A DNA stretch of 64,000 nucleotides, taken from the sequence record PQ471516.1. The stretch is one strand, 5' to 3'. The stretch is from Escherichia phage Turkey5. Positions 16,608-16,829 of this stretch are shown piece by piece. Within the stretch, counting starts at the first letter, position 1. The number at the start of each line of letters is the position of its first letter. The position numbers and the translations under genes were made by a program. The notes under the pieces were generated by a model. That model did no database searches and was not told the origin of the DNA. It saw only the letters and a list, made by a program, of their open reading frames with translations.

Positions 16608-16829
16608 AAAAGATTAAAAAAGGGATTGACTCCGGTCAGTCCCTTTGCTATTATATATTCATTGAGAGATAACTCACTGACCCATAGGGTGCATAAGTGT
16701 ATCTATTATATAAGTATTCAGTACTGGAAACTATTTTTAAAAAGTACTTGCATTGTACTTAGAATCAAGTATAATGTTTTATATCGAGAGGGGGAAATGG
16801 TTCTCCCTGGTACATTAAGGAATAAAATC

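Follow-up and report, generated by a model that had tools for sequence, protein, structure and literature searches.

The nut sites of phages lambda and P22 (boxA and boxB, acting with the N protein) and the put sites of HK022 are short structured RNAs located just 3' of early promoters, whatever genes follow. In boxB, a small hairpin, the stem sequence is free and the purine-rich loop is a GNRA-like pentaloop to which the arginine-rich N protein binds. put is an RNA with two hairpins; it attaches to the polymerase during transcription and, with no protein involved, suppresses termination. The lambda oop RNA is the short product of a single gene, antisense to the cII mRNA, whose promoter fires against the end of an operon and which stops at the terminator there. 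Sibling small RNAs of enterobacteria such as Qrr1-5 and OmrA/B are encoded by paralogous genes, each with its own promoter and intrinsic terminator, and have one invariant stretch while the rest is variable. Long repeats dense in host-type early promoters, terminators and small genes are found in Bacillus phage SPO1 (host-takeover module in the terminal redundancy) and T5 (pre-early region in the terminal repeat); we know of no conserved promoter-proximal RNA element of the type described here in either phage.

In lambda (PR'-tR', the '6S RNA') and in Shiga-toxin phages (StxS, the form of the same transcript there), a strong constitutive promoter with a close intrinsic terminator gives an abundant short RNA able to regulate (PMC7547250). 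Small RNAs in general are reviewed in PMC12205990. In addition, RNA-seq of Pseudomonas phage PA5oct showed two abundant non-coding RNAs of the terminal repeat, ncRNA001 and ncRNA002, which made up 2-5% of phage reads (PMC7318152).

Comparison of a ~95-bp unit that recurs at the start of the Escherichia phage Turkey5 stretch with these closest described systems (the PR' short RNA StxS, nut/put, oop and sibling small RNAs) showed that none of them shares sequence with it. The repeat is probably a transcription unit for a conserved structured RNA, and not a mobile DNA cassette or an operator. It represents a covariation-supported RNA family specific to RaK2-like jumbo phages that was absent from Rfam and from the literature found.

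Units in the terminal repeat of the window

The window is the whole stretch of 64,000 nucleotides from Escherichia phage Turkey5 (PQ471516.1). The 2-kb stretch around the finding had 94-95% identity with Asteriusvirus jumbo coliphages (Turkey3, vB_Ec-M-J, fEgEco12 and PBECO4 relatives), the genomes of which are 350-380 kb, and the matching stretch in vB_Ec-M-J was inside the annotated direct terminal repeats. The direct terminal repeat of fEgEco12 is 20,993 bp, confirmed by restriction mapping (PMC13070987). Position 2400 of the window corresponded to position 3132 of fEgEco12 which, with the length of that repeat, puts the left physical end within 1 kb of the window start and the first ~21 kb of the window in the terminal repeat. 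All units were within the first 19 kb, on both strands, and the covariance model with speed filters off found no convincing unit in the remaining 45 kb.

A preliminary description had reported four copies of a composite of terminator, promoter and conserved box at 9566-9665, 13312-13410, 16611-16712 and 18876-18970. All four copies were present, and their alignment matched over the whole length, beyond the promoter hexamers, with a pairwise identity of 82-90% over ~95 bp. The composite was accurately described, with the hairpin, the embedded TTGACT -35, the TATTAT -10 and the box found in 4/4 copies. A 27-nt box gave four matches (9629, 13367, 16677 and 18934) with 0-3 mismatches compared to 0 expected from 100 shuffles, and the hairpin/promoter part also gave four matches compared to 0 expected. 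The inverted boxes were real as well (51-63, 2521-2533 and 5043-5055; 8 matches vs. 0.03 expected), and each of the long inverted repeats at 216-292 and 2461-2535 proved to be two convergent units face to face. What had been overlooked is that every inverted box is served by a promoter of its own, always equally far away, and that a small covarying hairpin lies between promoter and box. That description also lacked two units, 11242-11326 on the + strand and 334-251 on the - strand.

Overall, the window contained 10 clear units and 1 degenerate unit. The + strand boxes started at 2465, 9633, 11299, 13371, 16681 and 18938, with the degenerate one at 210, and the - strand boxes started at 63, 278, 2533 and 5055. 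The features are as follows, where P1 is the small 5' hairpin, P3 is one of two pairings of the box, and bits are covariance model scores.

36..118 (-): unit nearest the left genome end, 53 bits; -35 TTGCTT 118-113; -10 TATAAT 96-91; P1 AGTC/GACT; box 63-52
178..245 (+): degenerate unit; box CTGCTAGGGTGC at 210-221; weak promoter; partial covariance model match, E 0.88
251..334 (-): minus-strand unit; promoter TTGACT-16-TATAAT 334-307; P1 CGC/GCG; box 278-267
2411..2492 (+): plus member of convergent pair; promoter 2411-2439; P1 GGC/GCC; box 2465-2476
2506..2583 (-): minus member of convergent pair; promoter 2583-2555; box 2533-2522
4965..5112 (-): stand-alone predicted small-RNA gene on the non-coding strand, 41 bits; promoter 5112-5084; P1 GAC/GTC; box 5055-5044
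5003-4983 (-): terminator of the preceding unit, common to the upstream + strand operon in the opposite direction
9566..9665 (+): composite unit 1, 58 bits
9571-9598 (+): terminator-like hairpin of unit 1, after an A-run; -35 TTGACT at 9578-9583 in the 5' arm
9601-9606 (+): TG-extended -10 TATTAT of unit 1; predicted start A9613
9615-9618 / 9625-9628 (+): P1 hairpin of unit 1, TGAG / CTCA
9633-9644 (+): box of unit 1, CCCACAGGGTGC; P3 3' arm GTATCT at 9651-9656
9700..9727 (+): class B promoter TTGCAA-16-TATAAT, 3' of unit 1; A/T-rich upstream tract with AAAAAGTAC
13450-13477, ~16745-16775 and 19031-19059: equivalents of the class B promoter
11242..11326 (+): unit without terminator hairpin, 32 bits; promoter TTGACA-17-CATAAT 11242-11270; P1 GACG/CGTC; box 11299-11310
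13312..13410 (+): composite unit 2, 43 bits; hairpin 13314-13341; -35 13321-13326; -10 13344-13349; P1 short, ATTG/CAAT; box 13371-13382
13402-13409: Chi site in a 12-nt insertion just 3' of unit 2
16611..16712 (+): composite unit 3, the flagged copy, 58.7 bits; hairpin 16619-16646; -35 16626-16631; -10 16649-16654; P1 TGAG/CTCA 16663-16676; box CCCATAGGGTGC at 16681-16692; P3 3' arm to 16704
18876..18970 (+): composite unit 4, 40 bits; hairpin 18881-18908; -35 18888-18893; -10 18911-18916; P1 degenerate; box 18938-18949

The class B promoter at 9700..9727 was placed to drive the gene starting at 9779. In the convergent pair at 2411..2492 and 2506..2583, the two GGGTGC motifs were 56 nt apart, and the unit at 251..334 (-) converged on the degenerate + strand unit at ~178-245. 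The P3 hairpin of the latter (215-234, AGGGTGCGGGAGTGTATCCT) was followed by seven T and was scored as an intrinsic terminator, so that the + strand RNA of some convergent pairs may end right after the element, at ~55 nt. The RNA of the 4965..5112 unit was predicted to be ~105 nt. Protein coding by the units was rejected: indels of 5 nt and 12 nt separated the copies, the 9566 and 13312 copies were spanned by no frame in either direction, and the frames that do cross a copy (16611, +; 18876, -) had no counterpart in the others.

Several other features of the region were recorded. Window positions 1-20000 contained 47 sites matching the sigma-70 consensus at 10/12 or more (~45 near-consensus promoters per 20 kb), 39 of them on the + strand, and almost every small gene there had its own promoter. 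Three promoter classes were present: TTGCAA-16-TATAAT with an A/T-rich upstream tract, a perfect TTGACA-16-TATAAT, and TTGACW-17 with a TG-extended -10. A second conserved non-coding leader, CATCAGGACGGGGAACGAAAYAAGTAAC..CCCGTTAAGTAGYCCAGGAGTAAG, followed class B promoters at 2664-2740 and 13484-13560; it had a long hairpin and no ORF, was followed by another consensus promoter, and may be a further RNA element. Another promoter cassette, AAATATTATCACAGTRCTATTGACATAGTTTGATAGTACTGRCATAAT, was found in three near-identical copies (7290-7345, 7583-7640 and 10430-10480) with a unit-type promoter and no box, each directly 5' of a gene with a product starting MAII or MAKTII; these genes may be paralogues. 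The palindrome CAGTACTG occurred 55 times compared to 0.86 expected, over the whole window inside and outside the terminal repeat (e.g., 26, 2425, 5013, 11256, 16719 and 34445-62649). It was frequent in promoter spacers (CAGTACTGGCATAAT), just 5' of the -35 (AAAAAGTACTTGCA) or 10-16 nt past the box, and may serve as a regulator site throughout the genome or as a component of promoters. Finally, Chi sites (GCTGGTGG) numbered 11 in the window compared to 0.48 expected, spanning 6620-19003 with another at 61855. Ten were inside the terminal repeat, nine of these on the + strand, the orientation in which RecBCD recognises Chi when it enters at the right-hand end of the genome, and those at 13402 and 18996 were directly 3' of units.

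Distribution, promoters and terminators of the unit family

The ~95-bp unit was found at 75-84% identity in RaK2, K64-1, GAP32, CBB, Serratia phage BF, Erwinia phages, Yersinia phage fHe-Yen9-03 and Salmonella phages 7t3 and PHA46. The host genera seen for the phages were Escherichia, Salmonella, Klebsiella, Cronobacter, Serratia, Yersinia, Pectobacterium and Erwinia. CBB has only 33-38% of its proteins in common with GAP32, PBECO4, 121Q and RaK2 (PMC5259590). The sources analysed were the early regions of RaK2, GAP32, CBB, Yen9-03, BF and 7t3 together with metagenomic jumbo-phage contigs picked out by an exact-pattern scan, and a covariance model seeded with 11 sequences identified 68 units in 6 sources and 100 units in 13 sources. 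In the whole-contig pattern scan, each genome (345-378 kb) had its matches within a single region no longer than 20 kb, and a second cluster of matches in CBB lay in the second terminal-repeat copy. The unit family thus appears, from these scans, to be present only in the terminal repeat of RaK2-like giant enterobacterial phages, with about ten units in each. The motif was absent from the terminal repeat of PA5oct (best covariance model match E = 0.47), and no homologue of the unit was found in E. coli genomes.

The positions of the units matched between GAP32 and CBB, which indicates that the units were inherited in place and are not mobile. The earlier suggestion of a mobile regulatory cassette did not hold against this agreement and the confinement to one terminal-repeat region per genome. 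A MITE-like element was rejected on these grounds and on the anchoring of the units to operon boundaries, and no terminal inverted repeats or target-site duplications were seen on an informal reading of the units.

Database searches did not assign the unit to a described family. The tRNA/tmRNA scan had no hit, and Rfam 15 (4227 models) had no match in the 64 kb at gathering thresholds. With the Rfam cut-off relaxed to E ≤5 for the first 21 kb, four weak matches were obtained, none covering P1 or the box; one of these, antisense_SR1 at 16517-16647 (23.8 bits vs. a gathering threshold of 45, E 0.6), ended in the terminator hairpin of unit 3. Literature on RaK2, CBB, fEgEco12, PA5oct and fENko-Kae01 and jumbo-phage reviews (one from 2026) reports generic RpoD-like early promoters and terminal repeats and does not mention the element, and no published description of the unit family was found. 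As a possible small-RNA seed, the box was invariant and only weakly folded (~-4 kcal/mol), and no complement to its 12 nt was found elsewhere in the 64 kb at up to 2 mismatches.

Promoters were scored as sigma-70 type with a TTGACA-like -35, a spacer of 16-18 bp and a TATAAT-like -10 whose second base is A and whose sixth base is T. All four flagged copies had such a promoter in the pattern scan (TTGACT-17-TATTAT with a TG extended -10, at 9578-9606, 13321-13349, 16626-16654 and 18888-18916). A predicted sigma-70 promoter scoring at least 9/12, with the -10 ending 20-31 nt before the CCC of the box, was present in 93/100 units, and the TG extended -10 in 59 of the 100. The pattern scan also showed a 12-pair hairpin with a T-rich tail in the four copies, predicted as an intrinsic terminator. 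Across phages, the outer stem of this terminator covaried (GGGG/CCCC, AGTAC/GTACT and AGGC/GCCT) and a UUCG loop was common.

The units occurred in three settings. In the first, the -35 was inside the terminator-like hairpin of the preceding operon, as in the four flagged copies; this was the case for 34/66 gene-strand units compared to 0/34 opposite-strand units. Lone gene-strand units had a second promoter within 40-90 nt in every genus, in the order A/T-rich tract with AAAAAGTAC, TTGCAW-16-TATAAT, leader hairpin, ribosome-binding site and gene. In the second setting, 13/16 lone minus-strand units and two plus-strand units were stand-alone predicted genes of ~105 nt, with a G+C-rich hairpin and U-rich tail starting 40-46 nt after GGGTGC and a conserved UAGUACUGUACAAAUAAAC just before it. 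These stand-alone units had their own promoter and their own intrinsic terminator, as a trans-acting small RNA does, whereas the four flagged copies run into the next promoter and, having no terminator of their own, may act only as 5' leaders. In the third setting, 36 units formed 18 convergent pairs with a GGGTGC-GGGTGC distance of 56, 67-68, 74 or 86 nt which was conserved across genera.

Structure of the predicted RNA

The layout upstream of every box in the window was the same on both strands: a near-consensus sigma-70 promoter, a conserved CA at which transcription is predicted to start, a short segment that varies, the linker YUAR, CCCAYMGGGTGC, six bases without conservation and NYRYCY. 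The variable segment formed the small 5' hairpin P1, and the first ~55 nt of the predicted transcript held P1 and the box. P1 stems included TGAG/CTCA, GGC/GCC, GACG/CGTC, AGTC/GACT, CCAC/GTGG, AGCA/TGCT, GCCA/TGGC, GGAG/CTCC, GGAA/TTCC, ACCG/CGGT and TCCA/TGGA among others, with 32 distinct stems among the 100 units. In the model-based alignment, both sides changed in 4/4 pairs of P1 and 95% of the cells were paired. A test independent of the alignment found correctly placed Watson-Crick stems of 4 bp or more in 51/100 units, compared to a mean of 6.7 and a maximum of 14 in shuffles. The loops of P1 were purine-rich and 6-8 nt long, mostly GCGAAA, GAGAAA, AGAUAA or AGAACAA, and P1 was unconvincing in ~15-20% of the units.

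The box CCCAYMGGGUGC (12 nt) was invariant across genera. Two pairings involve it, P2 (RCCC with GGGU, with a 3-4-nt loop) and P3 (GGGUGC with NYRYCY), and these are mutually exclusive since the GGG is common to both. P2 was 98% paired and nearly invariant, its innermost C-G pair being U.G in 3 units and U-A in 1, so that both folds of the box are putative. P3 was 89-91% paired in register compared to 29-59% with the partner columns slid, and together with the closing pair of P2 it varied only between G-C/G.U and U-A/U.G. The changes in P3 were one-sided, with a variable 3' arm and an invariant 5' arm, so that the shuffle control had no power to separate P3 from chance; the P3 fold is compatible with the alignment. 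The predicted stabilities of P2 (-3.9 kcal/mol) and P3 (-4.1 kcal/mol) were similar and both weak. The box pairings were mostly G.U (48/66 cells at three P3 positions) and present on one strand only. This reliance on G.U, with a box that is not a DNA palindrome, points to RNA and not to a DNA operator; a palindromic operator was rejected, as there was no Watson-Crick inverted repeat.

Folding energies of single sequences gave z-scores no better than shuffles, the hairpins being too small for significance. When the stand-alone units were aligned with MAFFT, RNAalifold recovered P2 as the sole structure because P1 and the terminator misalign. A pseudoknot between the P1 loop and the 3' arm of P3 (AGAUA/UAUCU) was rejected since it held for one loop class only.

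Interpretation and comparison with described systems

The earlier suggestion of a small-RNA function is supported by the covariation of the 5' hairpin, the strict linkage of the box with a sigma-70 promoter a constant distance away and the stand-alone copies ending at an intrinsic terminator, and binding of a protein by the invariant box is possible. The most likely function is that of a multi-copy immediate-early small RNA or leader, with a conserved partner that would recognise its box. The RNA would start at the conserved CA, from a strong host sigma-70 promoter in which the -10 is often TG-extended, and the first ~55 nt would consist of P1 with its free stem sequence and purine-rich loop, a short linker and then the bistable box. 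About ten such units per terminal repeat would mark the operon boundaries of the immediate-early region. With the -35 within the preceding terminator, the RNA of a gene-strand unit would run on into the second promoter and the next gene; an opposite-strand unit would fire back into the bidirectional terminator of the operon, giving a ~105-nt RNA, and some units would oppose each other as convergent pairs. We infer that host RNA polymerase makes the RNA in bulk directly after DNA entry and that the units act as a multi-copy 'sibling' small RNA or leader. The 12-nt box may be recognised by a host or phage protein, by RNA polymerase itself or by a complementary RNA, and P1 may serve as a 5' protective or recognition hairpin.

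A serious rival is modification of RNA polymerase in cis, as by lambda nut/N, HK022 put or lambda PR'/Q, although we consider it unlikely. The P1 and box RNA would, either unaided or together with a phage protein, remain on the polymerase by which it was transcribed and alter pausing or termination such that only transcripts from unit promoters pass the many terminators, with read-through of the opposite-strand units serving as antisense shut-off of early operons. In line with this, the element is always at about +4 to +55 of its own predicted transcript regardless of the downstream sequence, the units are exactly at terminators, the purine-rich, AA-ending loops of P1 recall boxB, and the stand-alone units have a terminator immediately downstream like lambda PR'-tR' (PMC7547250 for the PR' short RNA). 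However, no boxA-like sequence (CGCTCTTA / GCTCTTTA) was found on either strand of the first 21 kb, and a crude, simple scan of the window showed no credible arginine-rich N-like small protein. The loops are 6-8 nt and not GNRA-like pentaloops, and a conserved terminator at a fixed 45 nt past an antiterminator would need a special explanation. Promoter density is also very high, and with a strong promoter of its own for almost every early gene, read-through is not obviously needed.

Two further readings, both improbable, place the function in the DNA or in the act of transcription. The box might work as double-stranded DNA, either as an operator or roadblock for a phage regulator which shuts the promoters off, or as the -35-like element CCCACA in a second promoter (spacer 17 bp, then TATTAT/TATAGT/TAAAAT) used with a phage sigma factor or activator, P1 being merely a 5' stabilising hairpin. 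Both 'arms' of the box are indeed invariant, compensatory changes being almost absent, GTATC is followed at -10 spacing by a T/C-A-T-W-R hexamer, and RaK2-like phages encode a sigma factor (PMC5259590). However, the key last T of the supposed -10 was present in only 52% of the units, and in stand-alone units this promoter would start ~16 nt before the terminator and yield a pointless RNA. The box always comes with an upstream sigma-70 promoter (at least 9/12 in 93/100) and never occurs outside the terminal repeat, it is not palindromic, the adjacent variation keeps G.U or G-C RNA pairs on one strand only, and the published promoter motifs of the clade differ (TGAAACG...TATA and ATAAATA). Equally doubtful is that transcription matters and the RNA does not, with operon-end promoters and convergent pairs acting as insulators or collision barriers, or opening the DNA or forming R-loops that aid recombination or replication of the terminal repeat. 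The location of every unit, whichever way it faces, at the boundary of an operon, the 18 convergent pairs with fixed spacing conserved across genera and the strong enrichment of Chi sites in the same region agree with such a role, but 12 invariant transcribed nt across genera with ~25-30% genome nucleotide identity and the covariation of the P1 stem would be left unexplained.

Beyond the preferred reading as a small RNA or leader, a more speculative proposal, which we hold to be possible but not probable, is a new promoter-proximal RNA device of giant virulent phages in which P1 and the bistable box either (a) reprogramme host RNA polymerase like put/nut or (b) act as a decoy RNA. If (a) were true, termination would be switchable at ~10 operon boundaries, including antisense shut-off of early genes by the opposite-strand copies; if (b) were true, about 20 gene copies' worth of decoy RNA would be made in the first minutes, capturing a host factor conserved across the host genera seen for these phages.

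RaK2-like jumbo phages (350-380 kb) are under development for therapy and, to our knowledge, almost nothing is known of the first minutes of their infection. A clade-wide RNA motif with covariation support, in a terminal repeat dense with strong host-type promoters, offers a concrete, readily testable handle on early host takeover, with targets for probes, mutagenesis and pull-down, and extends the small set of regulatory RNAs encoded by phages by one candidate family. Given ~10 copies in each of the two repeats of a genome, the motif probably ranks with the most abundant phage transcripts made early. The design is unusually compact, as the terminator stem carries the -35 of the next promoter.

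Compared to the nut and put sites, the P1 hairpin resembles boxB in its small size, purine-rich loop and free stem, but the units have the hairpin first and then a linear conserved box, have no boxA and have loops of 6-8 nt. One third of the units point away from all genes, unlike nut and put, and the promoter-proximal position and two-hairpin layout are the sole features in common with HK022 put. The opposite-strand units, like oop, fire against an operon end and stop at the terminator, but their overlap is limited to the common terminator and the conserved box is unrelated to the neighbouring gene. With Qrr1-5 and OmrA/B the units share the presence of several paralogues with an invariant stretch in variable surroundings; the invariant stretch of the units differs in being G+C-rich and able to fold, and in many copies the unit does not stand alone but is joined to a terminator or to the promoter that follows.

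In lambda PR'-tR' and StxS a promoter is likewise followed by a close terminator, the promoter-proximal region being where an antiterminator would act. However, these are single-copy elements in the late region of temperate lambdoid phages, whereas each terminal repeat of a virulent giant phage has ~10 paralogous units, in which the box is invariant and the 5' hairpin covaries; they have no sequence similarity to PR'-tR', and no Q-like gene was identified. The unit-bearing terminal repeat itself resembles those of SPO1 and T5 in its strong early host-type promoters, terminators and small genes. Finally, the ncRNAs of PA5oct, a distant relative in the same jumbo-phage group, are 236-451 nt long (8263-8498 and 21951-22401) and lack the unit motif; abundant terminal-repeat RNAs may be a common theme with different sequences.
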